This document shows positions 191 through 46,580 of a stretch of DNA of 64,000 nucleotides, one piece after another; the first letter of the stretch is position 1; the number at the start of each line of letters is the position of its first letter. The notes below the pieces were generated by a model. The model was not told the DNA's origin. It saw nothing but the letters and a program-made list of their open reading frames with translations, and searched no databases. The translations under genes and the position numbers were made by a program. This DNA is from an uncultured Chthonomonadaceae bacterium (lineage in GTDB: Bacteria > Armatimonadota > Chthonomonadetes > Chthonomonadales > Chthonomonadaceae), in contig CAWIEK010000003.1 in NCBI GenBank assembly GCA_963835065.1, positions 128,001-192,000 on the forward strand, read 5' to 3'.

Positions 191-338
191 GAATTTTCAC
201 CACCAAGACGCCAAGAACACCAAGAAAAGACATCGGGAAAGATAAGCCGTAAAAGATACGAAGCCAATAAGAATGTAGAGACAACTTCTGAGAATTGCTA
301 TCTTCTTGGTGTTCTTAGCGTGTTGGTGGTGAAAATTC
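191..338. repeat. Hairpin element A: 36-bp inverted arms of CACCAAGA-like repeats
   Basis: 191-226 vs 303-338, 2 mismatches; abuts the permease stop codon (337-339). Confidence 0.9.
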
Positions 339-1498
339 ACTCTGCTCTTAATGCCTGGGCGGGATGCAGGCGGCTGGCTTGCCAGGCCGGGTACAGACCT
401 GCCGCCAGTCCGACGCCCACGCTCAACAGCAGGCAGCGCGTAATCACGTCCGGCGTCAGGGTCAGCAGGGGCGCGGCGGGCGCGAGCGGAACTTGGGCTT
501 TGACAAGCGTTTCCAGCCCGTGTCCGCCGAACAGCGCCATTGCCAGGCCCAACCAACAGCCGGAAAGGGTCAGGAACAGGGCTTCAAGGACGAGCAGGCC
601 GAAGATGTGGCCGCGCCCCGCTCCTACCGCCCGCAGCATCCCCAATTCGCCCGCGCGCTCCAGAACTGAGGTCAGCATGGTGTTGAAAACCGACAGTGCG
701 CTGATGGCGACGGCGATTACGGCAATGGCGAATACCAGCGTTCGCACCGCGCCCATTAAATTCAGGAACGCGCCAAGCATTTCGGCCAGGGTTGCGGTTT
801 GCGCGCCCGGTATGGCCTGCAATCGGGCTTGCGCTTCTCCGGTCAGGGACGGGTCGCGCAGGCGGATGGCAACGGCGGTCACGCGGTCGGGCTGATGGAA
901 CATGGCCTGCGCTGTTGCTAAAGGCACGAAAAACTGGCTGTCGTCACTGGTTCCACTGCGCTCCAAAATGCCGCAAACGCGAAACCGCTTGCCGGTTTCC
1001 GGGCTGTACAGCGTATCGCCCACCTTGCGCATTTCCGTTGCGGCGGCTTCCGCGCCCAAAATCACATCCTCGGAGCCTGCAAACCAGTCCGCTCCCTCCC
1101 GCGCTTTCCACCAGGGCTTGAGCGGGCGTATGGACGCATCCACGCCCACCCACATATCCGTGCGCCCTTCGGAAGGGCCGCGGTACGGTCGCCAGCAGCA
1201 GGGGCGCGGCGCAGGCAACGGCGGGGTCGCGCCGCGCGGTTTCTACACAGGAGGCAGGCAGCGACACATCCAGCGCTTTGCCCTTCAACACGCGGGCGGC
1301 GGCATCATACGGACAGCCGAGCGGAACGAGCATCATCTGTACGCCCATGCCGTTCAGTTCGCGGCCCAACTCGCGCTGATACCCTTCGCCAAAAGCAAGC
1401 AAACACGCCAAAACGCTCACAGCAATGCCGACGCCAATGACGGTCAACGCGGTACGCAAACGGCGGCGCAGCAAATTCTGCAGGGCAAGTAACAGCAT
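337..1498 (-). CDS. ABC transporter permease, MacB/FtsX family (frameshift near 1170)
   Basis: ORF 944..1498 has the N-terminal LRRRLRTALTVIGVGIAV; ORF 337..1218 has SVLERAGELGMLRAVGA and GLYPAWQASRLHPAQALR. Confidence 0.85.
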
Positions 1499-1522
1499 TG
1501 TTTCTTCTTAATGTTTGGTCTT

Positions 1523-2240
1523 TTAATGTTTTGTCAGCGTTTGCTCGCCGATATGGAGCAAAATCAGGGCGGTACGCGCCCCATCCAAAAGGGCGGCGGC
1601 GGAAGGGTATGCCGCCTCCGATAGTTTCACGTTTTGAAAGTTTAGCGCCCAATCGGACTGCCACGTTTTGCCGACAAAGACGCGCAAAAAATTATTGGAT
1701 TGCAGTTCGCGGGCAACCGTTTCCGGTTCGCGTAAGCGCTGTAACCGCGCACCCAATACTTTGCCGTTGGCATCAACCGCCAACACCAGTTCAATCACGC
1801 CGGATTCGCCAGCCACGCAGCGGGTTACAATCGTGCCGACACTTTGCTCCGCGCTTCCGTTCTGCCGGAGGATGCGGTGAATCAGAATGGCGTTTTCCTG
1901 TGCTGTCGGCTGCCTGCCAAGAAACTTCGCTATCTGCGGACGCATCCGGGACAGAACAAGCGTATCTTCCCGCGTTGTGAGCGTATTTTCGCGTACTGCA
2001 GGCGCGTCTTTGCGCACTGTGTCGGCGGCTCCAAAAAACCGCTTGCGATCCGCTTCCGGCTTCCGCCAGGGACATAAGCCCGCTTCGTCGTCGCGCGGGT
2101 TGCGTATGGGGAAATCCTTGCCGATGTCCAATGTGGGCAGGTCATCGGGCCGTGACAGTCGCCAGGACGCAAGAGCGGTGATCCCAATCAGCGCGAGACT
2201 TATCCCTGCAAACAACGCGCGCGGCCTGCCTTGTTTCAGT
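1523..2240 (-). CDS. Membrane-anchored FMN-binding-domain-like protein (start uncertain)
   Basis: N-terminal TM segment; GESGVIELVLAVDANGKVLGARLQRLREP...FLRVFVGK resembles the FMN_bind/RnfG fold. Confidence 0.55.
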
Positions 2241-2628: not shown

Positions 2629-3025
2629 AATTGTATTGTCCATAACACCTGAACACCGAACACCGGCTTTAGAGATGTGCCGGGTTGAAGGCATGGAAAC
2701 ATTGTAACATGCTTTTCGTTCGCAGCGCAATATCAAGCGGAAAATAATCTATGCGAATGGTTCTATCTATGTGCGGAAGAGGGTCAATAAAAGGGTTGGG
2801 AACGAAATACTGGTACAAATACGTAGTTTAGAGTGTCTGCGAAGAAGGCAGCGCTGACAACCTCACCCAAAATCGGCTTTTCATTTGCGCTTCGTCTCCT
2901 TGTTGTGACGCCGAGCGCGGTGAAAAGCCGTTTTTGGTAGTAGGGTTTTAAGGTTCTACGGTTTTAGGGTTTTATGTTTTTAGGTGAAGTAACACGCATG
3001 TTGTGTCCTCTTCCTGAAATACGGC

Positions 3026-3049
3026 GGGCACAACATGTTGTGCCCCTAC
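3026..3049. repeat. GTAG-type REP palindrome
   Basis: GGGCACAACATGTTGTGCCC followed by CTAC; flanked by TAGGGTTT/AACCCTA low-complexity arms (about 2940-2985 and 3074-3095). Confidence 0.7.
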
Positions 3050-9527: not shown

Positions 9528-11508
9528 ATGATGAAACCGGAAACGGAGCAGACCGGCAAAGATGTCAAAAGCCAGTTCAAGCCGATTGCCGAAGCCGATC
9601 TGCAAACGTTGGCGGGAACGGGCAGTTTCGGGCGCGGCCTGAAATACTTTCGGAGCAATTACATCACCGACGCCATTTTGCGCGGCGACACGCTGTATGC
9701 GCAATGTTACGGGTCGCAGGCTGCCGCGTACCGTTTGTCCGCCACGCTGGTTCGCGCGGCAGTGGATGAGAATATGCCGACAGCGGCAGCAAAGCAGGCA
9801 ATTCTCATTGGTGGCGTACCGATAACGGCGTATGCGTGCGAATGTGAAGCAGGCGGGTTTTGCAAGCATCTGGTCGCCCTCCTGCTGACGTGGCTCAATA
9901 AGCCGGAAAGCATCGGAGTTCGGGCGGAGTTTGCCGTTCGGCTTCAGGCTTTCAGTCAAGAACAACTGCTGAAATTGTGCTTGAAACTGCTGGAACGGCA
10001 GCCGGATATGGAGTACCTGATTGACGTGGTTCCGCCGCCGGTTACGCCATCTAGCGAAGCCGGGTCCGATGCATCGGGAGGCCCGGCAGTGTCTCCTCTG
10101 GCAAACGCGCGAACGGTGGACGTGAACGCTATCCGCCGCCGGGTGCAAAAAGCGTTTCAGCAAGGGGGTCGAGGCTACGATGAGTATTACGGCAGGGCAG
10201 AGCGCATTGCCGAAGAACTTCAGCCCCTTATGGAGACAGGCGGCGAGTACGCCGAAGCCGGGCAGTGGGCGAACGCGCAGGCTATTTATGAAACTATCGC
10301 GCTCGAAGCCATCGAAGAGTACGAAGACACGGACGATGAGGGCGACTTATCCAATCTGGTAAACAATTGCTGCGACGGCCTTGCCGGTTGCCTGGACGCG
10401 CAGGCGGCTTTGCCCGAAGCCGCGCGTTTAGATGCCAATGCCCGCCATCAACTCATCCAATCGCTGTACAAGGTGTGGGAGTACGACCGGCACATGGGCG
10501 GCATCGGGCTGGCGAACGACGCGCAGGAGGCGATAGCCCGCAACGTTACCCCCACCGAACGCGCCGAAGTGGAAACGTGGCTGCAAAGTGGAATGAAACC
10601 GGGCACGGACTTTTCCAGCAATTTCAATAACGGCGCTTACGCCCGGTTTCTCGTTGCCTTAAAAGTCCATTCCGGCATCAGCGATGAAGAAAAACTGGCC
10701 GAGTACCGCAAGCACGGCCTATACACGCAGATCACGGACTTGCTGCTGGCAATGGGGCGCGTGGACGAGGCGATGCAGACAGCCCTTGAAGAAACGCCCA
10801 CGCAAATGCAGTTGACTGCCTTCGCCGGTAAGCTGCTCAATCATGGGCGGTGAAAACGTCACGCGCGCCCTGGAGTTCGTGGCGAAACTACAGGAGAAAG
10901 CGGCAGCCGCAAACGCGATTTACGACAATGCGAGCTATCTGCGCTGGCTGGCGGATCGCTACGCCGTTCACAATCAGCCGGGCAAAGCGTTGGAAGCGCA
11001 AAAGCAACTGTTTACCACAACGCCGAGCCTGGCCGAGTATCGCAACGTCAAGAAAGCCGCGCAATTGCCGGGCAATCCCGCCGAGGCCTGGACACAGCAA
11101 CGCCCCGAACTGATTGCCGCGCTGCAAGAGCGCAAAGACTGGCACACACTGACCGAGATTTATATGGAGGAAGCGCAGGCGCGGGAAGCGCTGGATGCGC
11201 TGCAAGCCTACGACGAATCCGAAACACAGTGGCGCGGGAGTGACCTTCATGCCCGCGTCGCCGGGATAGCCGAAACCGAGTTCCCCGACGAGGCGCGGGT
11301 AATCTATCAGCTTCTGGCGGAAAACCTTATCGAGCGGCGTGGGCGCGACAACTATCAACTGGCGGCAAGCTACCTGGCGCGGGCCAAAGACCTGGCCGGA
11401 AAAGCGAACCGCCTGGTCGAATGGAACCGCTATTTCACCGCCCTGCGCGACAACAACACCCGCCTGACCGCGCTAAAGGAAGAATTGCGCGCCCGCAAGC
11501 TACTGTGA
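9528..11508 (+). CDS. SWIM zinc-finger protein with helical repeats (frameshift near 10845)
   Basis: SFGRGLKYF, CECEAGGFCKHLVALLL; C-terminus GRDNYQLAASYL...RLTALKEEL. Confidence 0.8.
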
Positions 11509-11613
11509 GATAAGAGATAAGAGATAAGAGATAAGAGTGAGAAAACTTCTCAAAGTCAGGCAAAATGTTCCTTGCTGACTTCTATCTTCTATCTCTTATC
11601 TCTTATCTCTTAC

Positions 11614-12446: not shown

Positions 12447-13616
12447 CTAAACGTTGACAGGGAGGACTGTAGCAGAAACAGCCTGCAACTGACACTCAGA
12501 TGCAGGAAGTTTTGTGTTGATCAGGCGACCATGTGGTGGCGCTTCCAAAAGGTTTGGCACAGATATTTGTCCATTGCTGAGGCGGACAAGGCAAAAACAC
12601 TCTTGCGGTTTTCGGATAGCATGAGAAAGCAGTGTCATGCCGCGAGGCGGCAAGCCGGACAGTCTTTGTGGAGTCCTGTTTATTCGATCAGGAGGAGTAT
12701 AGCGAATTGCTAATGATTGTGGGGGCAGATTACCGAGATCGTATGTTGAAAAGGGAATAAAGCTTATCGGCTGATTGTGGTACTTGACACGTCCGCTTTC
12801 GTACTCTGTCAGGAAGCCGAATACAGCATCTCCTTGTACGTTCGCATACAATCTAACGGCTCCATCAGGCAGAGCAATATTGAGGTCTACTCGCGTGATT
12901 GCTGCATCAGGCCAAAGAACAATATCATAGGCAGAGTTTGCATCATCTTCGATTCCATACGAGGGCGGAGTGGCATGAGCCAGCGAATGTGCCATTGCCC
13001 ATCCTTCCTGCATACGAATGTCGGACATTGTCATGCGATACAAGCGGCATAATCGGATGAAATCTTGGAGATTGCGGGGCTTAATCACAAGGAGTATCGA
13101 CATCAAAGCGGCTTCCGCTGTAAGATGTGTAAGTCTGCCGAATTCATGCGAGGGCCGTTGAATGACATTACATCGGCGGCATCGAAAAGCAATATTCTCA
13201 ATGGTATCTGCATCAAGCGGGTCCAGGAAACTTTCGCGCGCTTGAATATGGTCCGCCTGAAGTTCAAGACGAGTGCCGCAATCAGCACATTGGCTGGTTT
13301 GCTGATACATCCACTCCATCACAATTCTCATAGTGCTCCCCTTACCGTAATTGCGTTGGAAGCCTTTTGAGGAGGCTAAACTTGTGCCAACCTGAGAGGG
13401 GTTTAAGTGTCCCAACACTAATGCTGCCACTTCCTTCCACGAAAAGAACTTGGAGGCAACTAAGCTGCTGAGTAGATCAAGCCATTGCTGATCATCCCAG
13501 GTTTGGTCTTGCAATCCAAATGCGGCAGGCGTGGACATTGGCGCTGAAATATTGTGAGGAGTAGATTCGCCCGGCTGATGGTCTGCTATTACGTCCATAT
13601 CTACATCGTTATTCAT
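12447..13616 (-). CDS. HNH endonuclease, putative restriction endonuclease
   Basis: CADCG-x6-DH...ENIAFRCRRCN; ATGA overlap with upstream XRE gene; lower-GC region. Confidence 0.75.
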   Translation of the reverse strand: MNNDVDMDVIADHQPGESTPHNISAPMSTPAAFGLQDQTWDDQQWLDLLSSLVASKFFSWKEVAALVLGHLNPSQVGTSLASSKGFQRNYGKGSTMRIVMEWMYQQTSQCADCGTRLELQADHIQARESFLDPLDADTIENIAFRCRRCNVIQRPSHEFGRLTHLTAEAALMSILLVIKPRNLQDFIRLCRLYRMTMSDIRMQEGWAMAHSLAHATPPSYGIEDDANSAYDIVLWPDAAITRVDLNIALPDGAVRLYANVQGDAVFGFLTEYESGRVKYHNQPISFIPFSTYDLGNLPPQSLAIRYTPPDRINRTPQRLSGLPPRGMTLLSHAIRKPQECFCLVRLSNGQISVPNLLEAPPHGRLINTKLPASECQLQAVSATVLPVNV

Positions 13617-23547: not shown

Positions 23548-24552
23548 ATGTTGCCGTCCCGTTTTCAACATGCCGCGCCCAATTCCCTGCGTTCCCGCTT
23601 CCACGCCTGCCGCCTGCGCGTTCAGAACGGCTGGCAGTGGCGGCGGCAAATCGCGCATCTTGGCAGCGCAAACCACGCTGAGTACGCAAGCGCGGCGGAA
23701 TGGCTGTTGGCGCGGCACGAACCGGCGCGGCCTCAACTGCACCGCGCGCTCAGAGCGGCTTCCCCGGTTGCCTGCGGCGCGGCAGGGGTATTGCATCAGC
23801 TTGGCGATTCGCAGGGGGTGCGCTATATATTGCTGCGCGCCTATCAGGATGAGTGGTTTACCCACTATCCCGCACAGGACATTTCGGCGTCAGCGCATCA
23901 TCTCGAACAGCGCATCGGAGCAGAGCCAATACGGCAGGTGATATGGCAGGCGCTTGAAGACGCTTGCTACGCTCCCAACGCGCAAGCCTGCCTGCAAACC
24001 CTGACGATTGCCCTGAGCGGGCTGCGCGCCCTGAACGTAATCGCTTCCCATTCTGAAGCGCCTTCCAATAGCAAGAACGACACTTCCTTCTGGATGCAGG
24101 CATTTCTTTTTGGGACTGCCCAATTGCCTCCTTACAAGCAGGCGATCACCTCCATGCCCCTGCTTGCCAACATGACCGGCTGGATTCGCGCCGAAGCCAT
24201 GCGCGGACTATTGCGCGAACATTCTGCGGATATATGCCTGCCAGTTTTCTCGGACGCGCTGCAAGCGGAGGATCAATCCGTCGTCCGCAGCGCCATTATC
24301 GCGCTGCAATGCCTGGGGAATCCCCGCGCTGTTCCCGCGCTGGAAACCCTTGCGTTCACAACCGGGCATCCGCTTTCCCTGCCGGCCCGCCGCGCCATCG
24401 AGCGCCTTGCCGGGACACAAGCCGAAGTTCTCACGCTGGTACGCGCCTCCCGCGAAGACGTAGAAGCCGAAGAACTGCTCCGAGCCGCCCATCCCACGCG
24501 CCCCGAAGCGGCGGAAGGGGAACGGGAAACGCTGCTGCATGTGAGGCATTAG
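23548..24552 (+). CDS. HEAT-repeat protein with triple-LLR tail (paralogue 2)
   Basis: SVVRSAIIALQCLGNPRAVPALE; tail TLVRAS..EELLRA..ETLLH. Confidence 0.7.
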   Translation: MLPSRFQHAAPNSLRSRFHACRLRVQNGWQWRRQIAHLGSANHAEYASAAEWLLARHEPARPQLHRALRAASPVACGAAGVLHQLGDSQGVRYILLRAYQDEWFTHYPAQDISASAHHLEQRIGAEPIRQVIWQALEDACYAPNAQACLQTLTIALSGLRALNVIASHSEAPSNSKNDTSFWMQAFLFGTAQLPPYKQAITSMPLLANMTGWIRAEAMRGLLREHSADICLPVFSDALQAEDQSVVRSAIIALQCLGNPRAVPALETLAFTTGHPLSLPARRAIERLAGTQAEVLTLVRASREDVEAEELLRAAHPTRPEAAEGERETLLHVRH

Positions 24553-24633
24553 GCATCAGGCATTAGATACAAGAGAGAAGAGAGAAGACAGAAGGTACTT
24601 GTTCCTAATGCCTGATGCCTAATGCCTGATGCC
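24544..24633. repeat. AGGCAT(T/C) heptamer inverted-arm element, copy 1
   Basis: AGGCATT/C x3 ... TAATGCC/TGATGCC x4; spacer AGATACAAGA..AGAAGGTACTTGT shared with 33295-33362. Confidence 0.85.
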
Positions 24634-25745: not shown

Positions 25746-26705
25746 ATGCTTTCGGACACTTTTGGACGCTATTATTCCCTGTACCGAGTTCACCGCGCCA
25801 TTCGCCTGCTCAACGACCCGCGCCTTCCCCTGCGCGCGGACGCGAAAGAGCAGCTGCGGAGCGCGCGTTCGCTGAGCGTGAAACCTTTGCGGCAGGTCGC
25901 CTTTCGACAGCGCTCCCTGCTCGCCATCCATGCGGCGGAACTGCTCATCGAAATGGACGACGCGCAGGGATTGTACGCCCTGCTTGCGCAATACTCCGAC
26001 CGCTATCTGGCATCGTGGCATGGGCAGCATCTGCGCATGATTTTGGGGCGCGTGGGCAGCGAGCGGATTCTGCGCGTTCTGGAAGCCTCCCTGGACTGGA
26101 TGGAAACTTCGCCCCTGCTGCGCGAACACTGGTGTCTGTCGCTGTCCGTGTATGCCCTTCATGCGCTCGAAGCCCTGCGCGCCCGCGTCCCTTTTTCGCT
26201 GTGGCGGCGCGCGCTGTCCGCGTACTCGCCGGGTTTTGAGGATTTGCGCGCGTGCCGCGCAGTGGTTTCCATGAATGAGATTCTGGGCAGTTCCGCATCC
26301 GCGCATGACGACAACTGGCGCGTCGGTTCCACGCTTGCCGCCGTGCGCCGGGTTGCCATAGACGCCCTGCTCACCTTAGACCGCGCCCATGCGTTCGACC
26401 TGCTGCGCGACGCGCTGGCCCACTCTGCCCCGGAAGTGCAATTAACCGCGCTGTACGGCCTGGCGCACCTGCGCGACCCGCGCGCTTACGTGCTGCTTCA
26501 ACCTATCGCCGCGGATCGCCGCCATCCCCTGGCGCGGGATGCCCGCCGCGTCATCGAATCTTTCGGTTCGCGCCAGCCGGACGCGCTGACCCTGGTTCGC
26601 GCCGCCGCGCCGCAGGAAATCCGTCCGAACGAACTCTTGCGTCCCACCACGCCCGTAACCGACGCCGACCCGGATACGCTGCTAAGAGTAGTCAGTAGTC
26701 AGTAG
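25746..26705 (+). CDS. HEAT-repeat protein with triple-LLR tail (paralogue 4)
   Basis: EVQLTALYGLAHLRDPRA; tail TLVRAA..NELLRP..DTLLRV. Confidence 0.72.
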   Translation: MLSDTFGRYYSLYRVHRAIRLLNDPRLPLRADAKEQLRSARSLSVKPLRQVAFRQRSLLAIHAAELLIEMDDAQGLYALLAQYSDRYLASWHGQHLRMILGRVGSERILRVLEASLDWMETSPLLREHWCLSLSVYALHALEALRARVPFSLWRRALSAYSPGFEDLRACRAVVSMNEILGSSASAHDDNWRVGSTLAAVRRVAIDALLTLDRAHAFDLLRDALAHSAPEVQLTALYGLAHLRDPRAYVLLQPIAADRRHPLARDARRVIESFGSRQPDALTLVRAAAPQEIRPNELLRPTTPVTDADPDTLLRVVSSQ

Positions 26706-26805
26706 TCAGTAGAGGAACGCGCTCTGAAATTTTATACTGCGCCGCGCCTCTCAGGTAAACAGGCATTTACTGACTACTGACTACTGACTACTGACTACTG
26801 ACTAC
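26687..26805. repeat. GTAGTCA/TGACTAC heptamer inverted-arm element
   Basis: About 3 copies, a spacer, then about 5 inverted copies; supplies the upstream stop codon. Confidence 0.85.
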
Positions 26806-27630: not shown

Positions 27631-27658
27631 ACTGCCCCCATGCGCCTTACATGAAAAG

Positions 27659-27708
27659 CCCCTCTCCTAGCGAGGAACGAGCGGCCAGGAGAGGGGTTGG
27701 GGTGAGGT
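27659..27708. repeat. CCCCTCTCC..GGAGAGGGG REP-like palindrome, copy 1
   Basis: 50 bp identical (inverted) to 51697-51746. Confidence 0.9.
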
Positions 27709-30579: not shown

Positions 30580-33306
30580 TCAGGGAACCTGAACGATAAA
30601 GTCCGCCGTCAGCGGCTTTCCCTTATGCTTAAACTGACCCCATATCTTGTACACGCCGGGGCGCGGAAATTTGGCATGGAAAACGATGTTCGGCCCGAAA
30701 CGCTCCCCGCCCATTTCGGTCGGGTGCGAATGGAGATAGTTTTGGGTGTCTTCACTTAAAATGACGCAGTGCCCGCCCGCGCCTAAAAATGGTTCCACGT
30801 CGGTTAATGGCAAGCCATCTTTTGATAACGTGAAGGTCAGCGTGGTTTCGTCATTCACCTGGGGCGGATTGGGAGTCATTGTCAGGGCGACGCGGTAGGG
30901 TCCGAATATTCGCGCCTGCGCGGGCGTCACCAGAAGCGATTGGGGAGTAGGCACATTCCCGACAACCATAACCGGGATGCGAAACACCTGGTTGCGGTCT
31001 CCGGTTGGTGTACAATCGGCATATAAAACGTATTCGCCTCCATGCGGAAATATGTAATTCTCCAGTATCAGCGGGTCGCCGTCCTGTCGCGCTTTTGGGT
31101 GAACGTGATCGAAAAACGACAGGTCGCGGCTGGCAATAATCAGGTGCAGTTTTTTTGTATGTACCACATCCAGGCTGCTGACAGGCTTGCCATCGGCGCG
31201 GCGCGGCGTCAGTTGCAGAATCGTCTTCTGCCCGGCAACAGGCTGCGTAATGGGCCGCGTAAACTCGGCGCTGTTACGGTGTTCCGGTACAAACAGATTC
31301 ACGTCCATACGGTACGTGTCATCGTGCAGTTTGTCGGCGGGGCGGGGTGGCTTGTTGGGTACGAGCGCCATTTTGCACAAGAGGCAGGTTCCCGGCGCGT
31401 CCGCGCCCTGCGCGTCGTGCATGGGACAGACGAATTTGGCCGCAGAATGGGGCGCAGTGAATTTCCGGTCAATATAAGGCTCGAAGTCGGCAACCAGTGG
31501 CGGCGTTGTCCTTTCCGCTCCTTTGGGAACAACCAGCATTTGCATTTGAAACAGGGGCACATTGCGCAGGAAATTGGCGTAGCCCGTAAAGTGACAACTG
31601 CCCTTCACCAACTTTTCCGCCGTTAAATCCACCGCCGTCGTATCCGTTCCCACTTTCACGAGGGCAATCGCGCTGTCCTCCACAATCATTTGCTCTTTGT
31701 CGTTACCCTGATTGAGAACATACACGTCTATCTTCTGCGTGGCCGGGTCGTACACAAACTCGGCGCGATCCTTTCCCAACGGCGCGATCAACCCGCCATG
31801 CGGCGCGCTCAACGCCAGGTTGCCATAGCCCAGAAACCAGGGCAACCCCTCATTGTAATTGATAAGAAAGACGGATTCTATCAGCATCAGAATCGGGTAC
31901 ACCCAGGCGAGGACGCGAGGCAGGAAATTCGGTTGAGGGCTTTTAGTTGATAGTTGATAGTTGATAGTTGATAGGGATGGCGTGAAGGATGAAGTTGGTT
32001 CGGGCAGGATGGCGGCAGAAGTGGGCTGTGATTCCAGATGGCTTTGGGGCGCTGACGCCGGCCCTGCTTGTGCAGACGCTTGTTCCCGCTTCTGCTGTAT
32101 CAGGGCATCTTCAATCAGTTTTACCGCGCCGATGCACAACGCGAGTACGCCCATAACGGTATGGTGAATGTACACGCCCGCCGCGACATTGGCATACGGC
32201 GCGTTGGAATGGACGTGCGTAAACAGCAATCCCCCGCCCACTAAGGCGAATATCGCCATCATGCGGGCATGCAATTGACGATTTTCGATTTTTGATTTTT
32301 GATTTTCGGTTGTGGATTGTGGATTGTGGATTGTGGATAGCGCGTCGGGCGCATGGTTCATGGCGGGCGCATGGTTCATGGCGGGCGCATGGTTCATGGC
32401 GGGCGCATGGTTCATGGCGGGCGCAATGAATTGCGCCCCTACGCTTTTTCCTTTTTCCCTTTTCCTTTTTCCTTCCTCAATCCACATCCGCACCCCGTTC
32501 AGGCCGGCGAGGAGCATCAGAATGGCGTAGGTTTTGTGCATCAGCACTTCTTTGTCGGACCAGGGGCGGAAGGGGCGCACCTGATACAGCGGCCAGGCGT
32601 CCTGATCGCTGAAAATCATCAGGAACACGCCGCCGGAGAGCAGCAGCAGGGGCGCGAAACGGCGCAGGCGATCTCCCCATTTAGGCGAAATTTGATCCGT
32701 CAGCAGCATCAGCGCGAGAATCATCACCATCACGCCGAAAACGTGGTGCATTTTGTTGGAATAAAAGAGCGCGTCGGGGTCCTGCTTTTGCAGCAGCACG
32801 GCCATGTCTTCATGCGTGGCAAGGGGCAGCAGTCCCGCCGCATGAACGCCCGCGCCGTGATTGTACACCAGCATCGCGCCCTGATGCCCCGTATAAATCA
32901 GCATCCCGCAGGCCAGGATTGCCGTTACCAGGTACGCGGCCATCCAGCCCCGCTTTTTGCCCACGCCCAGGAACAGCCTCGCCGCCGTCAGGAACACGAA
33001 CGTCCAGCTTGTGATCGTCGCCAGCAGTTCGTGAAATTCCATCGGTTCCTGGGGAATGCCGTCGCGGGCGGCCCACACTTCCGCAAAGTTGCCCGCCACA
33101 AACGCGAAAAGGGTTGCTGTCGTGCCGATTAGCAGCAGGCTTTGCGCCGCCCACGCGAATCGCCGATCCTGCCGCGCAAAGCCGACCAGTTCCAGCAGCA
33201 CGGAAACCAGCAGCAGCACCAGGGGAAAATGTACCAGAGCGGGGTGCAGAAAGCCAAAAAATCGGGCGAGTTCCAATGCGGTAAATCCTTGAGAGGCATT
33301 AGGCAT
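30580..33306 (-). CDS. Multidomain membrane heavy-metal (copper?) protein: DUF2231 + His-rich TM region + CPMH metal-binding domain
   Basis: LHPALVHFP, GHQGAMLVYNHG, FVCPMH..CLLCKMAL, HTKKLHLII, FLGAGGH, YLHSHP. Confidence 0.8.
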   Translation of the reverse strand: MPNASQGFTALELARFFGFLHPALVHFPLVLLLVSVLLELVGFARQDRRFAWAAQSLLLIGTTATLFAFVAGNFAEVWAARDGIPQEPMEFHELLATITSWTFVFLTAARLFLGVGKKRGWMAAYLVTAILACGMLIYTGHQGAMLVYNHGAGVHAAGLLPLATHEDMAVLLQKQDPDALFYSNKMHHVFGVMVMILALMLLTDQISPKWGDRLRRFAPLLLLSGGVFLMIFSDQDAWPLYQVRPFRPWSDKEVLMHKTYAILMLLAGLNGVRMWIEEGKRKREKGKSVGAQFIAPAMNHAPAMNHAPAMNHAPAMNHAPDALSTIHNPQSTTENQKSKIENRQLHARMMAIFALVGGGLLFTHVHSNAPYANVAAGVYIHHTVMGVLALCIGAVKLIEDALIQQKREQASAQAGPASAPQSHLESQPTSAAILPEPTSSFTPSLSTINYQLSTKSPQPNFLPRVLAWVYPILMLIESVFLINYNEGLPWFLGYGNLALSAPHGGLIAPLGKDRAEFVYDPATQKIDVYVLNQGNDKEQMIVEDSAIALVKVGTDTTAVDLTAEKLVKGSCHFTGYANFLRNVPLFQMQMLVVPKGAERTTPPLVADFEPYIDRKFTAPHSAAKFVCPMHDAQGADAPGTCLLCKMALVPNKPPRPADKLHDDTYRMDVNLFVPEHRNSAEFTRPITQPVAGQKTILQLTPRRADGKPVSSLDVVHTKKLHLIIASRDLSFFDHVHPKARQDGDPLILENYIFPHGGEYVLYADCTPTGDRNQVFRIPVMVVGNVPTPQSLLVTPAQARIFGPYRVALTMTPNPPQVNDETTLTFTLSKDGLPLTDVEPFLGAGGHCVILSEDTQNYLHSHPTEMGGERFGPNIVFHAKFPRPGVYKIWGQFKHKGKPLTADFIVQVP
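32347..32442. repeat. In-frame 18-bp tandem repeat x4 plus GTAG-type REP inside the CDS
   Basis: GGGCGCATGGTTCATGGC x4 then GGGCGCAATGAATTGCGCCCCTAC; encodes VGAQFIAP(AMNHAP)4. Confidence 0.9.
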
Positions 33307-33362
33307 TAGGCATCAGATACAAGATAGAAAATAGAAGGTACTTGTGCCTAATGCCTAATGCC
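33295..33362. repeat. AGGCAT(T/C) heptamer inverted-arm element, copy 2
   Basis: Same arms and spacer as 24544-24633. Confidence 0.85.
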
Positions 33363-33794
33363 TTCCAAAAGCGCAATCGTTTGCAGCGCGTCGGGGCGGG
33401 GAACCTGGCGTATCTCGAAGCCGTTGGACAGACGAAAGGCGCGGCTGTCATGGAGATGAAAATTGGCCCAGTGGGCGGCGGACAGGCCGAAATGGTCGCG
33501 CAGAGTGGTATTTGCGCCATGCGCGAGCAGAACGCGCGTCACATCGGGATGCGCGTTACGGGCGGACATCATCAGGGGCGTATCGCCAAAACGATCCCGC
33601 GCGTTAATGTTCGCGCCCCGGTCAAGCCAGTACGCGGCTTCCTGCGCCTGCCCATCGCTTGCGGCCTGCGCCAGATGCGCGCTTGCATACGCGGCGCAGC
33701 AGGCGCGGCCAAGCGTACACCACGCCAACGCTGCCAGCAAAACGACCAAGCCTGCCCGCAAGGGAAGAGAGGTTTTCACGCCGTTAGTAACCAT
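33348..33794 (-). CDS. Secreted ankyrin-repeat protein
   Basis: Signal peptide; LDRGANINARDRFGDTPLMMSA, LLAHGAN. Confidence 0.85.
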   Translation of the reverse strand: MVTNGVKTSLPLRAGLVVLLAALAWCTLGRACCAAYASAHLAQAASDGQAQEAAYWLDRGANINARDRFGDTPLMMSARNAHPDVTRVLLAHGANTTLRDHFGLSAAHWANFHLHDSRAFRLSNGFEIRQVPRPDALQTIALLEGIRH

Positions 33795-35192: not shown

Positions 35193-35387
35193 GCGTCCGC
35201 AGGACGCTTGACCTTTCCTGCCGGTGTTTTCAACGCCTGCTGTGAAATTGGCTTTTCCTGTTTGTTGCCGGGTACTGAAAGTACCCGGCAGGACAAAACA
35301 AGCGTCTTTCAGACGCGATGCTCTAGTCACAAATTCCCGCGTCCGTAGGACGCTTGACCTTTCCTGCCGGGATTTTCAATCCCCGGC
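35193..35387. repeat. BIME-like cluster of three double-hairpin units
   Basis: GCGTCCGYAGGACGC-TTGACCTTTCCT-GCCGG.. at 35193 and 35339; inverted variant at 35267-35316. Confidence 0.8.
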
Positions 35388-38058: not shown

Positions 38059-39403
38059 TCAGGGTTTGGCAGGAGCGGGGTGGTCTTGCATTTTTTGCAG
38101 CCCGGTTTTCACGCCGTCGAGCAGGGTTGGGCCGAACTGGTCGCCGTAAAACGACATGACCGCCTCGTATTTGCCCGCTTTGTATTGGGGCGGCGTCAGG
38201 GCGTAGGCGAGCCAATCATTGACAAGCGCGACAACAGCAGGCGTTTTGTAACCGGCCTGCCGCGCCATTGCTTTCGCCGCCAGCCCCACATCGCCCGTTG
38301 GTTCGCAGGGAAAGCCTATCAGCAGCAGGTCGCCCACGCGCACAAAATTGATCTGCGTTTCCGTCGGCATCAGGGCGTTGACAAGGTCTTTGGACTGCGA
38401 TATGGACGCGCCCATTTGCGCGGCTGCGAGGAAAAACAGGGCGTTGGGCTTGCGCGGCGGCAGGGCAACGGTCTGCGTCCACATCGCAAGCGGCATTTCC
38501 CCGGCTGTGGCTGCGCCCGCCAATTGCTCCAAAACGCGCTTGCCCATCCGATGCCCATAGGTGGACACTTTGGCGTCACCCGATGCGACATCATCAACCC
38601 CGTTGGGCGAAGCGTCTCCTTCCGCGCCGTTGAGGAACAGGCACACGCCCGCGCCGTTCGCTTCCCCTTTCGCGCCCGCGCTTTCCACATCCCCGGTCAT
38701 CACGCCCGGCCAGTCGGCGGATATGTCCATCATTTTATCATCGTACAGCGTGGGATGCGCGGCGAAGTTGACGATTGCCGCCAGAGGCTTACCATCGGAG
38801 ATTTGCGTCACTTTCAAGACGGTCAAAGCGGGGTCAACAGTCGGGTCGCCCCGCCGGTTGCGGTTGGCTCCCGTCGCGTCCTCCGTCTTCACGCCCACAG
38901 AAACCGGAACCATACCCTTGACAGCCTGGGCGATGACTTTTGCGATTTGCGCGGCGGTGAAGTCCAGCAGTTTGGCGTCGAACGGCGTCCAGCCTTTCAG
39001 GTTGGTAAACGTGTTGCCCGTGTGCATGGCAAGTGGGTCAGGCGCGGTATGCGTGTGCGTTGCCGCCAGAAACAAATGCGCGGCGTCAACGCTCGTTTCC
39101 CCGTCCATTTTCAAGTGTTTCAGCGTTTCCGTTTTCACGCTTGCCGGCACAAAGCACAAATCCAGCGATACGACAACAACGGTCGCCTTGCCGTCCGAAA
39201 GCGCCAATGCCCGCGCATACACCGGGATCATGCACCCCCGTTGCCCGCGCCGCTTTCCGCGCCGCATACCCGCCGAGTGGAACCGCGTTCGCCTTCACGT
39301 CCGGTGTAATGTCCACCTTCGCCGCCCCGCCCCTGAGTTCCGCCCGCGCCGTGAGGGCAGAGAACACTATCACCACAGAGACACAGAGACACAGAGGGGT
39401 CAC
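38059..39403 (-). CDS. Neutral/alkaline ceramidase N-terminal-domain family protein (frameshift near 39225; start uncertain)
   Basis: GAAKVDITP..PLGGY..GVHDP | VYARALAL, ATHTHTAP, NFAAHPT, ISADWPG, NGAEGD. Confidence 0.8.
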
Positions 39404-39552
39404 AGAGAGAATACGAGAGGAATCAAAACCAAGCGAAAAAGCCCGGTTTGTATTGATGTGATTTATTCCCTTTCGTTGTCGCGTTCCCCTCTCTCTCCCC
39501 TCTCCCCCGTTTTTCTCTGTGAATCCTCTGTGTCTCTGTGTCTCTGTGGTGA
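39370..39552. repeat. Hairpin element B: 39-bp inverted arms of CACAGAGA repeats
   Basis: 39370-39408 vs 39514-39552, 2 mismatches. Confidence 0.9.
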
Positions 39553-39601
39553 AAGTTGTCTTGCATAGTTTTGTTACTCTTCTCGCATGATGTGCAGTTT
39601 T

Positions 39602-40609
39602 TTAGCCGACAGTCACTGTTAGCCCTGCTTGCGGCTTGGGAACCAGCAGGCGTTCCGCGCCCGCTGCGGTCAGGGCCGCGCCGACGGTTTGCGGATCGTG
39701 GGTCAGGGCGAGAATGGTTCCGCCGCCGCCTGCGCCTGCCAGTTTCGCGCCATACGCGCCGGCTGCGCGGGCCGTATTGATAAGATGCTCGTTAGCCGGG
39801 CCGGAGCCGCCGAGCGCGGCGACAAGGGCGTGATTTTCATTCATCAATGCGCCCAAATCCTGCCAGCGCTGTTCGACAAGGGCGCGTTTGCCCAATCGCG
39901 CCAGTTGCGCAATGCGAACGTAACTGTCGCGCACAAGGGTTTCGCCGGCCAGCCAGCGTTCGCGGGGCGATTTATGGACGGTTCCCGAATGGTGCTGTAT
40001 GCCCGTGTGCGCAAGAAGCAACGGAGGCGCGTTCAATGCTTCGCCCATCCAGAGCGACAGCGGTTCTACGGTGACAAGCGGTTCCTCGTCGCGCTGTTCC
40101 AGTTGTTCCTTGCCCGCGCAGTCCATGAAATTCAGGCCACCGAAAACCGCCATGTGCTGATCCTGCAAGCCGCACACGATGCCCATAACGCGCGATTCGA
40201 TTTTGCGGGTGGTTTCCGCAAGCGCGTAGCGGTTCAGGTTCAATTGTAAATACGCATCAAGCGCGCCCACAATCGCCGCCAGCATTGCGGTAGAACCGGC
40301 TAATCCCGCCCGCATGGGAATATCGGTTTTCAAATGCAGATGAAAACGCTGCTGCTGCGGGTCAATCTGAAAGTACGTGAGCGCGGCGCGGGCAATGTCG
40401 AGTTTGTCGCCCTGCGCGGCAAAATCCGCCTGTGTTCGTACAATGGCCTGCTCATCTTCATTGGTCAGAACAAGAGTGTCCGCAGAGGGCGCTAACCGGC
40501 ACTCCGCCCGCTCCTGCGTAGTGCAGGAAACAACGCAACCCCCGTACATATCGGTCGGATTGCCGATCAGCCCACACCGCCCCGGCGCAGTAGCTATGAT
40601 TTCCGTCAC
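39602..40609 (-). CDS. GHMP-family sugar kinase
   Basis: APGRCGLIGNPTD, IPMRAGLAGS, CGLQDQ, GAKLAGAGGGG. Confidence 0.9.
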   Translation of the reverse strand: MTEIIATAPGRCGLIGNPTDMYGGCVVSCTTQERAECRLAPSADTLVLTNEDEQAIVRTQADFAAQGDKLDIARAALTYFQIDPQQQRFHLHLKTDIPMRAGLAGSTAMLAAIVGALDAYLQLNLNRYALAETTRKIESRVMGIVCGLQDQHMAVFGGLNFMDCAGKEQLEQRDEEPLVTVEPLSLWMGEALNAPPLLLAHTGIQHHSGTVHKSPRERWLAGETLVRDSYVRIAQLARLGKRALVEQRWQDLGALMNENHALVAALGGSGPANEHLINTARAAGAYGAKLAGAGGGGTILALTHDPQTVGAALTAAGAERLLVPKPQAGLTVTVG

Positions 40610-40890
40610 CCGTTGCTCTCCTTACATGCTGGTGTTCAGGTATTCGGTGTTCAGGTGTTGGGTATTGGGCTTCTGTCTTCTGTCTTTTGTCTTATCCCTT
40701 ACCACTTACCTCTTCATCACTAATTTCGCCAAAACACTGCCGGGTTCCTACGGGTTTTCATTTCTTTATGCTACAATAACACAACAAGGAATAAGGGATA
40801 AGTAGGCATCAGGCATCAGGCATCAGCCGAACACCGAATACCTGAATACCTGAATACCGCACACCTGAACACCGAAAGGAATTGACTTAA

Positions 40891-41325
40891 ATGGCGAACC
40901 GAACAGCCGTACTGGATACCAACAAAGGCGTAATTCGCTTTGAATTGTTTGAAGACCTTGCCCCAATTACCACGCAGAACTTCATTGACCTGGCGCAGTC
41001 GGGATTTTACACCGGCCTGACGTTTCACCGCTACGAACCTGGCTTTGTGATTCAGGGCGGCGACCCGACCGGAACCGGCACGGGAAGCTCCAAGCGCACC
41101 ATCCCGCTGGAAGTCTCGCCCAAACTGAAACACGACGACGCGGGCGCGGTGGCGATGGCGCGCTCGTCCGACCCCGACAGCGCTTCCTGCCAATTCTACA
41201 TTACCCTGAAGGCCACGCCGTTTCTGGACGGTAATTATGCCGTGTTCGGCAAAGTGACCGAAGGACTGGAAGCCGCCCTCGCCCTGCGCAAAGGCGATAC
41301 CATGAATACGGTTACGATTGAATAG
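40891..41325 (+). CDS. Cyclophilin-type peptidyl-prolyl isomerase
   Basis: [37 protein letters not shown]. Confidence 0.95.
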
Positions 41326-41435
41326 GTGTTCAGGTGTTCGGGTATTCGGGTGAGAAGTGTTCTCTTGAAAGCTGCATTACCCGAATACCTGAACACCTGA
41401 ATACCTGAATACCTGCACTTATAAGGAGGCACTCT

Positions 41436-42815
41436 TTGGAACCACTGGAACCGGGCGATAAGTCGGACGCGCAAATGGACGCGAACCCGTCTGCTGCCGA
41501 ACTGTCACGGCGTGACTTTGTAAAGAAGTCCGCCCTTTCCGCCGCCATTATCGGGATGCCGACGGTTATTCCGAACCACGTTCTGGCCGCGCCCGGACGC
41601 CCCGGCGCGAATGACCGCATTATCTATGGGCATATCGGCGTGGGCGGCATGGGGCAGTCGCATGTCGTGGCCGATTCCGCCGCGTTCATCTGCGACGTGA
41701 ACCGGGGTCGCGCCCAATCCATCGCCGCTAAGTGCAGCAGCAATCCCAAAGTGACGCAGGATTACCGGGAAGTGCTGGACAGCAAGGACGTGGACGCCGT
41801 GACCATCGGCACACCCGACCACTGGCACGCCATTATGACCGTTGATGCGTGTCAGGCTGGCAAGGATGTGTACTCGGAAAAGCCTGTTTGTAAAACCATT
41901 CAGGAAGCCCACGCGATGGAGAACGCTACCAAACAGTACAAGCGCGTGGTGCAGATCGGAGCGCAGGGGCGCTCCAACCGCAACGCCTGGTACGCGGCGC
42001 AGTTTATCCGCAACGGACAAATCGGCAAAGTGAACCACGTCAAAATCTGGCATCCGGTCAACATGCGCAGCGATATGAACGGCGGCTGGGGGCAGGAAAT
42101 GGCTCCCCCGGCTGATCTCGATTGGAATATGTGGCTTGGCCCGGCCCGCTGGCGTCCCTACAACCCCGCGTATGTAGATTTCCACTTTCGCTGGATGATG
42201 GACTTCGGCGCGGGCTTCATTCGTGACCGGGGTAATCACGCTCTGAGTATCGTCAGTTGGTGCATGGGCGCGGATCAAACCGGCCCGGTCAGCGTGGAAG
42301 CGACGGGAACGCCGTCCCTTGACAGCGTGTACGACGCGCCGCCACAATTAAACGTCAAGTGGGAATTCAAAAACCCCGATTGGACGCTGACGTGGGGACA
42401 GCCCGGCGAACCCGAAGCGTTCCCCGGCCTGGATGATAAAATCGAATGGGGCGCAAAATACTATGGCGACCGCGATACCCTGATTGTGGAGGGCGGCGAC
42501 GGCGGCTGCAACACGGAGCAGAAGGCCAAGCAGTACAAGCCCGATTCCAGCGGCGTTCATCTGTTCCTTGACCCCGCGGAAGTGGACCCGACCGAGCGCC
42601 ACCGCCAGAACTGGCGCAAGTGCATCAAAACGCGCGAACAGCCCGTGATGAATACCACTGTCGGCAGGCACGTTATTGTCCTGCCTATCATCGCCAACAT
42701 TTCCTACCTGCTGAACCGCAAGCTGAACTGGGACCCGGTCAACTTCCGCTTCATCGGCGACGAAGAAGCCAATCGCTATCTCGCGCAGCCGTATCGCGCG
42801 CCCTTCCATCTGTAA
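41436..42815 (+). CDS. Tat-exported Gfo/Idh/MocA oxidoreductase
   Basis: SRRDFVK, IGVGGMG, TPDHWH, GKDVYSEKP, DWNMWLGPA. Confidence 0.93.
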   Translation: MEPLEPGDKSDAQMDANPSAAELSRRDFVKKSALSAAIIGMPTVIPNHVLAAPGRPGANDRIIYGHIGVGGMGQSHVVADSAAFICDVNRGRAQSIAAKCSSNPKVTQDYREVLDSKDVDAVTIGTPDHWHAIMTVDACQAGKDVYSEKPVCKTIQEAHAMENATKQYKRVVQIGAQGRSNRNAWYAAQFIRNGQIGKVNHVKIWHPVNMRSDMNGGWGQEMAPPADLDWNMWLGPARWRPYNPAYVDFHFRWMMDFGAGFIRDRGNHALSIVSWCMGADQTGPVSVEATGTPSLDSVYDAPPQLNVKWEFKNPDWTLTWGQPGEPEAFPGLDDKIEWGAKYYGDRDTLIVEGGDGGCNTEQKAKQYKPDSSGVHLFLDPAEVDPTERHRQNWRKCIKTREQPVMNTTVGRHVIVLPIIANISYLLNRKLNWDPVNFRFIGDEEANRYLAQPYRAPFHL

Positions 42816-42849: not shown

Positions 42850-42949
42850 TTACCACGGATGAAACGGATGAAACGGATACACACGGATGGAGAAAAACAT
42901 TTTCGGTATAATCCGTGTTCATCTGTTTCATCCGTTTCATCCGTGGTAA
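42850..42949. repeat. Hairpin element C: 39-bp inverted arms of ACGGATGAA repeats
   Basis: 42850-42888 vs 42911-42949, 3 mismatches. Confidence 0.9.
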
Positions 42950-43567: not shown

Positions 43568-43605
43568 CCCCTCTCCTGGCCGCTCCTGCGCTGCTAAGAG
43601 AGGGG
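43568..43605. repeat. CCCCTCTCC..GAGAGGGG REP-like palindrome, degenerate copy
   Basis: CCCCTCTCCTGGCCGCTC..AAGAGAGGGG. Confidence 0.7.
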
Positions 43606-43708
43606 CTTTGCTTTCGTAATAAGCCCTTACAGGGCAAAGGTAGCCGTAAGCCGGATGAGGGCAGAAGCTCCCGTCACGCATGGTATAATATTCTGAGCAA
43701 ACTTGACA

Positions 43709-44962: not shown

Positions 44963-45062
44963 CCGGGCAAAACTGTTGTTCCTCACCTGTTCTAATGAAG
45001 CGCCAAAGCTCACCCGAACACCTGAACACCGAACACCTGAACACCGGCATTTGAGGAATAAA

Positions 45063-45890
45063 TTGAACAAATCTACTGATATTATCGCTGAGGATCGCGT
45101 GGCTGTCCCTGTAGACCAACTCCACGTCCCGGCCAAGCCCGAAACGGAGCGCCCGCGCAATGGGCGGCATGAATCCATTCCCGTCAAAGACGCCGCCAAC
45201 GCGGTACAGGCGGCGGAACAGGCCGCGCCCAAACCTGTTTCTTACAGAGACGTGCGGAGCAATCCGAAAATCCGCGCTTACATTGAAAAAGCCAACGAGC
45301 AGATGCTTGTTATTGGCTACAGCGAACACGGCCTGCGCCATGCCGCCCTGTCCGCCGCCATTGCCCGCAACATCCTGCTGGAACTCGGCATGGAAGCGCG
45401 CGCCACCGAACTGGCCGCTATCGCCGGTTACATGCACGACATCGGTAACTGCGTCCACCGCATTTATCACCCGCAAATCGGCGCGACGATGGCAATGCAA
45501 TTGCTCGACCAGATGGGCATGGACGCCCGCGAAATCGGAACGGTTATCGGCGCTATCGGCAACCACGAGGAACCCGAAGGCGTTCCCATCAACACCATTG
45601 CCGCCGCCGTGATTATCGCCGACAAATCCGACGTGCATTTTACCCGCGTCCAAAATCCCGACCCCACCACTTACGACATCCATGACCGGGTGAACCACGC
45701 CGTGCAGAAATCACACATTATGGTTGACCGCGACGCCAAAATCATCACGCTTGACCTCATCATTGACGTGACCGAAGCGACCGTCATGGAATACTTTGAG
45801 ATATTCGTGATCCGCATGAGGCTGTGCCGCCACTCCGCAGAAAAACTCGGCTGCAAATTCCGCCTCATCATCAACGGCACGGAACTGTAA
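45063..45890 (+). CDS. HD-domain phosphohydrolase
   Basis: GYSEHGLRH, YMHDIGN, AIGNHEE, IIADKSDV, DIHDRVN. Confidence 0.9.
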   Translation: MNKSTDIIAEDRVAVPVDQLHVPAKPETERPRNGRHESIPVKDAANAVQAAEQAAPKPVSYRDVRSNPKIRAYIEKANEQMLVIGYSEHGLRHAALSAAIARNILLELGMEARATELAAIAGYMHDIGNCVHRIYHPQIGATMAMQLLDQMGMDAREIGTVIGAIGNHEEPEGVPINTIAAAVIIADKSDVHFTRVQNPDPTTYDIHDRVNHAVQKSHIMVDRDAKIITLDLIIDVTEATVMEYFEIFVIRMRLCRHSAEKLGCKFRLIINGTEL

Positions 45891-46580
45891 AAACATTTGA
45901 ACCGCAAAGGGGCAAAAGAGAGCAAAGAAAAGCAAAGAACGAAGAAACAGAAGAACAGGCATGGTAAAGGAGAATGGCGATAATTCCGCTCTACATTCCC
46001 ACAGGTCCACCGACCTCTTCTTTGTCTTTGTCTTTTCTTTGCCTCCTTTGCCCCTTTGCGGTTCACGTTTTCGCTGTGTACACGACGCGGTTGATGCCTG
46101 ATTTCAGGATGGTGACATTGAAGTTGATGAGCAGGCCGAGAGGAAGTTTGGTGGCTTTCAAGTACGACATCAACTGCGCGGTGTGTATGGGCAGCAGGGT
46201 TTCCACGGCTTTCAATTCCACGATCAGGCACTCATCCACGAGCAGATCAAGCCGCCCCTCGCCTACCTCAACACCTTTGTAGGCTACGCCAACAGGAGCC
46301 TGCCGCGCAACCGGAATGCCACGCAGTTGACACTCACGCTCAAGCGCGTATTCGTACACGCTTTCCAGATAGCCGGGGCCAAGCAATTTATGAACTTCAA
46401 TCGCCGCTCCGATAACCTCGTGTGAAAGCGCATTGATTTCGTCAGAAGGTTCCTGCATATTCTTCTCCATGTGTATACTGTTGTTCTCTGCGACTGCGGA
46501 ACGTAACTCGCCGTGTCTATTCTGCTTTTCTCTTCGTATTTCCTTTGCTCCCTTTGCCTCTTTGCGGTTCAAATGTTTTT
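45889..46580. mobile_element. Inverted-repeat-bounded GxxExxY cassette (putative mobile element)
   Basis: Perfect 21-bp inverted repeat AAAAACATTTGAACCGCAAAG at 45889-45909 and 46560-46580; third arm at 46032-46065. Confidence 0.6.
46063..46470 (-). CDS. GxxExxY protein (PD-(D/E)xK-like nuclease fold)
   Basis: IGAAIEVHKLLGPGYLESVYE, RLDLLVD..IVELKAV, AQLMSYLK, GLLINF. Confidence 0.95.
   Translation of the reverse strand: MEKNMQEPSDEINALSHEVIGAAIEVHKLLGPGYLESVYEYALERECQLRGIPVARQAPVGVAYKGVEVGEGRLDLLVDECLIVELKAVETLLPIHTAQLMSYLKATKLPLGLLINFNVTILKSGINRVVYTAKT

Follow-up and report, generated by a model that had tools for sequence, protein, structure and literature searches.

The stretch of DNA analyzed here, referred to below as the window, comprises 64,000 nt of contig CAWIEK010000003.1 (positions 128,001 to 192,000; assembly GCA_963835065.1) from an uncultured Chthonomonadaceae bacterium. 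It contains four hairpin elements at gene ends, whose inverted arms are built from short tandem words (A to D), and the fourth is part of a cassette that carries a gene of the GxxExxY family. An original prediction held that the hairpins are possible non-autonomous partners of this cassette, either MITE-like (miniature inverted-repeat transposable elements) or derived by deletion, with each word possibly matching a different GxxExxY paralogue. We found that the hairpins lack genes and belong to repeat families spread through the genome, with arms that match the arms around GxxExxY genes. Throughout, the window genome is G000, its relatives are G001, G002, and G003, strain sequencing runs are X2 to X5, and L numbers denote loci. 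The elements are as follows.

191-338: empty hairpin, word A (CACCAAGA); arms 191-226 and 303-338, 36 nt, 94% complementarity
39361-39561: empty hairpin, word B (CACAGAGA); arms 39361-39411 and 39511-39561, 51 nt, 88% complementarity
42850-42949: empty hairpin, word C (ACGGATGAA); arms 42850-42888 and 42911-42949, 39 nt, 92% complementarity
45898-46065: hairpin D, word D; arms 45898-45938 and 46025-46065, 41 nt, 80% complementarity
45889-46580: whole word-D cassette, about 690 bp, with genes for an HD-domain protein and a 3-keto-disaccharide hydrolase on its two sides
45889-45938: outer left word-D arm, starting within the stop codon of the HD-domain gene (45888-45890)
46020-46065: inner word-D arm, closing hairpin 45898-46065 and providing the TGA stop codon (46063-46065) of the GxxExxY gene
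46527-46580: outer right word-D arm, on the upstream side of the GxxExxY gene, in direct orientation to 46020-46065 and inverted relative to 45889-45938
46063-46458, minus strand: GxxExxY gene, 131 amino acids (PF13366/TIGR04256)

Hairpins and the GxxExxY cassette in the window

Repeat analysis of the window located the four inverted repeats where they had been predicted, and each arm carries ACC(A/G)C close to its outer end together with three to four units of 8 to 9 nt, as described. The arms had been called near-perfect, which does not hold for D, whose arms are only 80% complementary. The purine-rich arm had also been said to come first always on the plus strand; this order reads alike on both strands and is therefore a polarity of the element, not a strand bias. 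The polarity holds genome-wide, with 567 purine-first and 30 pyrimidine-first elements among 711 tandem-armed repeats. The description of the spacers as unrelated does not extend to most word-A spacers in the genome, which are 0.6 to 0.99 alike, while the spacer of the window A copy reaches at most 0.60. Hairpin A lies at the junction of two minus-strand genes, on their convergent-side ends, and its arm overlaps the stop codon of the open reading frame (ORF) at 337-1218 (minus strand). Hairpin B has as neighbors a GHMP-kinase gene (39602-40609, minus strand) and a ceramidase-like gene (38059-39267, minus strand), and hairpin C starts 35 nt past the stop codon of a Gfo/Idh/MocA gene (41436-42815, plus strand). 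The predicted folds of hairpins A and C have z values of about -12. Prediction of intrinsic terminators between 38500 and 47500 placed none on the stems of B, C, or D and found only a 5-bp stem within the D spacer; an Rfam search of the window gave no matches.

The word-D cassette has three word-D arms, the third of which (46527-46580) is absent from the original description. The outer 21 nt of the outer left arm are complementary to 46560-46580, and its inner units are complementary to the inner arm. The protein encoded between the arms is matched by the GxxExxY profiles with E values of 1.4e-40 (Pfam) and 1.6e-41 (NCBIfam), and only PF13366 matches it. The G29-E32-Y35 motif is invariant in the aligned GxxExxY proteins, as are E32, D71, E81, K83, Q95, and Y99 (D71, E81, and K83 in 27 of 27). 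D71, E81, and K83, together with Q95 and Y99, make up a PD-(D/E)XK core with a QxxxY motif, the mark of RecB-type nucleases. A structure model of the protein has a pLDDT (predicted local distance difference test) of 95. The top rows of a Foldseek search, all weak, were lambda-exonuclease, Cas4, and RecB-type nucleases, and nearly all top rows of a wide structural search were PD-(D/E)XK folds, with Z scores of up to 8.0. The modeled fold and the D...ExK motif place the protein in the PD-(D/E)XK superfamily, and nuclease activity is predicted for it. Orthologous cassette genes are under purifying selection, with nonsynonymous and synonymous divergences (dN and dS) of 0.054 and 0.55 and proportions of differences (pN and pS) of 0.09 and 0.76.

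Beyond these four elements, the window contains at least six additional tandem-armed hairpins of 7-8-mer families. Hairpins or arms of this kind lie at 11507-11609, 24544-24627, 26687-26799, 33294-33363, 40619-40876, 41324-41421, and 45012-45057, and their words are GAGATAA, AGGCATT, AGTAGTC, and CCGAACA/CCTGAA. A separate GC-rich palindrome family (CCCCTCTCC...GGAGAGGGG) is found at 27655-27708, 43568-43609, and 51697-51746, two copies sharing 50 identical nt. Four to five perfect 18-bp tandem copies occupy 32346-32435 within a long ORF (30580-33306, minus strand), and an intergenic cluster of short inverted and direct repeats at 35193-35379 (GCGTCCGCAGGACGC...) looks like repetitive extragenic palindromic (REP) sequences. 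A 389-amino-acid ORF at 12447-13616 (minus strand) has a weak HNH match.

Arm words and GxxExxY genes

A repeat finder detected 1032 long inverted repeats in the 8.0-Mb genome, 712 of which have tandem-built arms; about 500 have heptamer arms. Such repeats are not due to chance, since 149 were found in 1.04 Mb of the genome and none in a shuffled copy. The genome has at least eight word families. Strict patterns yielded 136 inward-facing pairs in six of them (A, 47; B, 33; Bx, a B variant with a 10-nt insert, 18; C, 4; D, 4; E, 30), some of which are copies on duplicated contigs, and there were no outward-facing pairs among the strict-pattern matches. Identical or near-identical flanks were seen on two contigs in several cases (C20/C44, C20/C8, C32/C63, and C55/C47), indicating either duplicated segments or a strain mixture in the assembly. 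F-word arms, most of which are single (43 of 52), may belong to another repeat.

By our own gene calls, none of the 136 paired elements lies within a gene, and most start within about 20 nt of a stop codon. Families B, Bx, and E combined sit at convergent junctions in 29 of 80 cases and at a divergent junction in 1, while word A follows the background distribution. The arms of one element co-vary in the cores of B (0.993 versus 0.981) and E (0.894 versus 0.840), to an extent reached by 0 of 2000 shuffles in each case, and the likeness also holds for the outer extension of A.

Family-wide searches of the relatives and the phylum, plus scans aimed at two clades, gave 287 GxxExxY loci, 282 of them with a near-full domain. 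The flanks of the gene contain an inverted match at 213 of the 262 loci with full flanks, compared with 2 of 154 distal control windows, and direct as well as inverted matches occur at 55 of the 262. Plain inverted arms account for 104 of 206 cassettes; the hairpin-gene-hairpin layout was seen in 10 of the 206, and an arm-gene-hairpin layout or its mirror image in 11. Words A to C are all multicopy, and each is found beside a GxxExxY gene somewhere: A at the C19 gene of G000 and at L047, B/Bx at the left arm of the C19 gene and at L046, and C at L068 in G001. The C19 cassette is a hybrid, with a word-A arm downstream and a Bx arm upstream, whereas its G002 ortholog L047 has A on both sides. 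The C39 gene of G000 is flanked by E arms, and its cassette occupies one site in two genera. Persistence at one site across genera was seen for cassettes L002, L064, and L053.

The suggested check of whether word type tracks the protein phylogeny gave a positive result at the level of word class, defined by the seventh base (G, T, or A) or by CRGGAT. Arm words were labeled at 216 loci, and the tree comprised 215 distinct proteins (one labeled by hand). On this tree, 9 changes of word class were counted, compared with an average of 83 for shuffled labels, and changes of the exact 7-mer numbered 116 versus 168; for the subset of 99 loci from family-wide searches, the values were 7 versus 39 and 59 versus 79. 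Exact words retained some signal within the AG clade (55 changes versus 70 in shuffles). Words A, B, D, and E go with the clade marked by LGPG(L/Y)LES and word C goes with another; recognition by GxxExxY proteins, if real, would therefore work by word class. The pairing of one word with one paralogue was not supported and is too strict: G000 has only three GxxExxY genes, all in the clade that accompanies A, B, D, and E, versus at least eight word families, and one gene has both A and B-type arms. Several residues were considered as determinants of specificity (C-terminal 115-121, P28, Y30, G66-G68, S98, and A102) and rejected, since they do no more than reflect the major division of the tree, and no residue was singled out by those few switches that are independent.

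Among 41 genomes, 10 or more word doublets were present in 9 of the 19 with a PF13366 gene versus 1 of the 22 without, a cutoff chosen after the counts were known and in a set where related genomes are not independent. GxxExxY genes were found in 85 of 251 genomes of this phylum, and one clade of the family spans many bacterial phyla and archaea. The association of GxxExxY genes with hairpins is real and widespread. Distant GxxExxY genes on viral contigs from IMG/VR (L325 to L329) have long inverted repeats on their flanks that are of a different kind (CGCTTCGC and AT-rich units). In G001 (C2, 2993739-2995479), a GxxExxY gene is split into two pieces about 1.3 kb apart between arms of CACAGATT, the most abundant word in that genome.

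Turnover, nesting, and an IS66 transposase

In the suggested comparison with close relatives, none of the four window sites keeps the same element where a comparison could be made. Site A is occupied in G003 by a CTACCAG heptamer element; neither G001 nor G002 yielded an ortholog of this site. The G002 occupant of site B is a GGAGAAAA-armed element that encloses CGCGAAA-type arms, and site C has a CAGTAGA heptamer element in G002 and a CGCAGATT element in G001. The cassette at site D is absent from G002, where the site is too diverged to fix the junction, and a CCGAACA element is present in G003. The X2 strain has an AAGACAG element directly past the same stop codon, and runs X3 to X5 contain pieces of the cassette, the X3 strain having 25 extra letters of arm-like sequence at the inner arm. 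A 12-bp duplication at the TGAACCGCAAAG core was considered as an insertion scar of the window gene and dropped, because the extra piece in X3 makes a later deletion fit equally well.

A wider comparison covered 1.6 Mb of G002 (about a fifth), with 336 matched gene junctions and 83% flank identity. At 32 junctions with a GxxExxY-type arm in G000, G002 has such an arm at 21 (18 of the same family), another tandem repeat at 4, and nothing at 7; among the 304 other junctions, G002 has a GxxExxY-type arm at only 7. The counts of 32 and 18 include F-word rows, and removal of F-only rows leaves 13 of 26 with the same family, 7 with another element, and 6 empty (two duplicated junctions included). 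Positional conservation of the kind seen in ordinary terminators, which the original prediction had set against its own idea, is thus absent from the four window sites but present at the 18 sites elsewhere, about half of those compared, which in part counts against that prediction. At two sites (C41:193750 and C54:27597), both arms are Bx in G000 and B in G002. For the 7-8-mer repeats, 51 junctions are occupied in both genomes, and the word is the same at only 8. Since junctions are shared between G000 and G002 while words differ, the sites are long-lived and their occupants are exchanged. Three four-helix-bundle genes (PF05635) in G000 (L410, L411, and L412, on C25, C8, and C33) each lie within inverted 7-8-mer arms (CAGGGAA-type, AGTAGTC, and AAAAGGAG); two of these arm words occupy sites C and B in G002, and both kinds of cassette therefore share sites.

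Most arms of D, H (CGCGAAA), C, and I (CAGGATT) sit within other elements in an almost fixed order. Counts of outer versus reverse arrangements were 36:0 for B/H, 19:0 for B/D, 18:3 for E/C, 14:4 for H/D, 9:0 for H/I, and 14:7 for E/H, and no outward-facing order was seen among 192 multi-arm clusters. This order could result from entry of new arms into the spacer of a hairpin already in place or from the copying of entire composite units.

Word A in G000 has a further history. Most of its copies terminate in GTAACTNT-TCACCACCAAG, and 24 of 43 are flanked by an 8-bp duplication of the target (at least 6 of 8 positions), compared with a mean of 0.8 and a maximum of 5 in shuffles. Word-A spacers form subfamilies. 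The genome also contains an element with matching ends:

C61:2459-4002 (L413): intact single-ORF IS66-family element with 12-bp ends GTAACTATTCAG and an 8-bp duplication (7 of 8)

This element fits the ISBst12 group in the form described for ISDge4, with ends GTAACTGCTCAGCA, an 8-bp duplication, and a single ORF (PMC12898284). Family A at large shows both features of an IS66 (ISBst12-group) MITE, that is, GTAA ends matching the resident IS66 and the 8-bp duplication, and we conclude that a transposase spread that family. The window copy (191-338) has neither the ends nor the duplication, and the signature is also lacking in the A-armed cassette L047 and in 5 of 6 empty A copies observed in G002; the burst therefore looks lineage-specific. 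Other GTAACTNTTCA ends without word A are present in the genome. For families B, Bx, and E, a search for target duplications of 2 to 10 bp at offsets 0 to 15 gave no signal beyond that of their own arm ends; C and D had 4 pairs each. The label MITE-like is thus apt for most word-A copies in the genome but not for the window A copy or for B, Bx, and E. Words of the CACCAAG type flank GxxExxY genes in other lineages (L105 and L163).

Explanations and known systems

We favor, with modest confidence, a reading in which the hairpins are non-autonomous partners of the GxxExxY nuclease, which would bind them by word class and cut them, with repair then copying the arms. The protein, acting in trans, would recognize the tandem words in a hairpin or cruciform, with each clade reading one word class, and nick close to the outer ACC(A/G)C. 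Synthesis during host repair, with the partner arm or a different copy as template, could then create new arms at gene ends that tolerate them or within the spacer of a resident hairpin. Rare gene-bearing copies would stay long at one site and serve many empty ones. An IS66 transposase additionally amplified word A, and this would be due to a merger of the outer end of word A with the terminal repeat of IS66. Cutting and copying repair would be expected to leave no target duplication and to yield symmetric arm switching, hybrid cassettes, and nesting. Replacement and nesting of hairpin families within one another at gene ends likely point to a selfish DNA system. Only tentatively do we propose something wider, namely, that GxxExxY proteins form a large family of minimal word-reading nucleases, a clade per word class, that could drive transposase-free mobility by copying during repair. 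Their hairpins would overwrite and invade one another in a pecking order, compete with four-helix-bundle cassettes for gene-end sites, and at times hijack IS66.

Several observations weigh against this partnership. Shared descent of the arms and the gene in one cassette would yield the same tree signal, which is therefore no proof of recognition. Word C has no matching gene in the 92%-complete G000 assembly; G001 (97% complete) has 23 AG-class doublets, yet 0 of 4 examined full-length genes are of the LGPGLLES type, and in G001 and G011 word class and gene class do not always match within the genome. Few words are present in 10 of the 19 genomes with the gene. Foldseek gave no match to the modeled protein at an E value of 0.001, and the top structural Z score of 8.0 is within the common range. 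Word A illustrates that a transposase can account for the copy number of a family. Co-variation of arms was not seen in the A core, where 1084 of 2000 shuffles reach the observed value, and is weak in Bx (82 of 2000). Retention of the same family at 18 of 32 sites in G002 implies that turnover is slow and that many copies are inherited, and the contigs of the five DNA runs yielded no near-identical strain with a clean insertion junction.

A rival reading is that the elements are REP-like and useful to the host as terminators, processing sites, or stabilizers of transcript ends. Ordinary gene conversion would keep them alike, and GxxExxY genes would be passengers inherited along with their arms, or domesticated helpers, rather than spreaders. 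We regard this as unlikely. It would account for the strong gene 3'-end bias of B, Bx, and E, the stable folds, the cassettes that hold one site across genera, and the co-occupancy of junctions (21 of 32 versus 7 of 304), but the occupant changes while the site stays, both at all four window sites and among the 7-8-mer repeats, and 7 of the 32 sites are plainly empty in G002. No element stem between 38500 and 47500 was predicted as a terminator, the window gave no Rfam match, and it is hard to see how nesting of up to three families would serve a host. Still less probable is that all families are ordinary MITEs moved by DDE transposases, with the GxxExxY gene as cargo in some. What is true of word A in G000, with its IS66 ends, its duplications, and an intact IS66, does not carry over to B, Bx, and E or to the copies of A that lack the signature; moreover, CACCAAG-type words accompany GxxExxY genes in other lineages, and an in-place switch of both arms differs from transposition.

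In its strict form, the original prediction gives every word a paralogue of its own and derives empty hairpins from cassettes that lost the gene between their direct arms; we consider it improbable and place it last. The window cassette has the required layout, crossing over within the shared TGAACCGCAAAG core would produce a hairpin that pairs well, and the loci with direct and inverted matches, the hairpin-gene-hairpin cassettes, and the residual signal of exact words in the AG clade are all in its favor. Deletion of this kind is therefore possible in the window cassette, but direct arms are a minority layout, half of the cassettes (104 of 206) having plain inverted arms, and no gene remnant was detected in the spacers of 140 empty elements by tblastn with 282 proteins or blastn with 9 genes. 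Three genes do not match at least eight word families, a hybrid A/Bx cassette exists, and 30 to 50 copies per family cannot arise by deletion without a copying step.

The flanking arms are a candidate substrate for GxxExxY proteins, and the match between word class and clade makes a direct test possible with a few 130-amino-acid proteins and a few oligonucleotides. If the nuclease partnership is correct, it would account for a large class of intergenic repeats that lack annotation (this genome has about 700 tandem-armed hairpins, the 8-10-mer ones being of the GxxExxY type), extend the gene-plus-hairpin design of RAYT and Ssn to a third nuclease superfamily, and perhaps yield a set of very small sequence-specific nucleases.

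RAYT, or TnpA-REP, is an HUH tyrosine transposase paired with REP/REPIN elements. In the GxxExxY cassettes, the gene between the arms is PF13366 rather than an HUH transposase (RAYT genes elsewhere in the genome were not searched for), and the arms consist of tandem words rather than REP palindromes and are replaced and nested in place. The two systems are alike in having a low-copy, long-resident gene and many intergenic, non-autonomous inverted pairs near gene ends, here 136 pairs versus 3 genes (on REPINs and RAYTs, see 10.1101/119735 and PMC8266576). Ssn nucleases with NTS/SRM hairpins, a precedent for the favored reading, cut beside their own flanking hairpins according to Chenal et al. 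(2025; PMC11893778). Both systems have a small nuclease gene of one domain that is bordered by repeats of its own (here at 213 of 262 loci), many gene-less repeats genome-wide, here abundant where the gene is present (9 of 19 versus 1 of 22 genomes), and repeat variants that follow protein variants. However, Ssn is a GIY-YIG protein (cd10448) for which cleavage, site-specific and on single-stranded hairpin DNA, has been shown, whereas GxxExxY is PD-(D/E)XK (PF13366) and cleavage is only predicted. Each SRM is by itself a 20-50-nt hairpin, whereas a GxxExxY arm, made of tandem 8-10-nt words, needs a second arm on the far side of a spacer or gene to pair with, and GxxExxY elements nest.

Likeness to IS66 MITEs, which extends to GTAACTNTTCA ends, 8-bp duplications, and a resident single-ORF IS66 with matching ends, concerns most copies of family A only, not the window copy, and these copies have as their body a hairpin of the GxxExxY type, with an outer end that overlaps that of IS66. 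The heptamer repeats of Xanthomonas and Nostoc (Rehm et al. 2015; PMC4692102) are also dispersed tandem repeats of about four short units, intergenic, near gene ends, and scarce at divergent genes, but they are 7-mers that form G-quadruplexes, with no partner gene named in the abstract, whereas here inward-facing 8-10-mer pairs are tied to a nuclease family. PDDEXK_3/GxxExxY is listed in PMC3424549 as of unknown function with many horizontal transfers. We found no description of GxxExxY (PF13366/TIGR04256/PDDEXK_3) with flanking arms or hairpins in a search of mostly open-access literature. What is new in the anatomy is the fixed-order nesting, the in-place switching of type by both arms, and the IS66 ends with 8-bp target duplications on most word-A copies. 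By analogy, the GxxExxY system would work like Ssn-SRM and RAYT-REPIN, and it belongs to neither.

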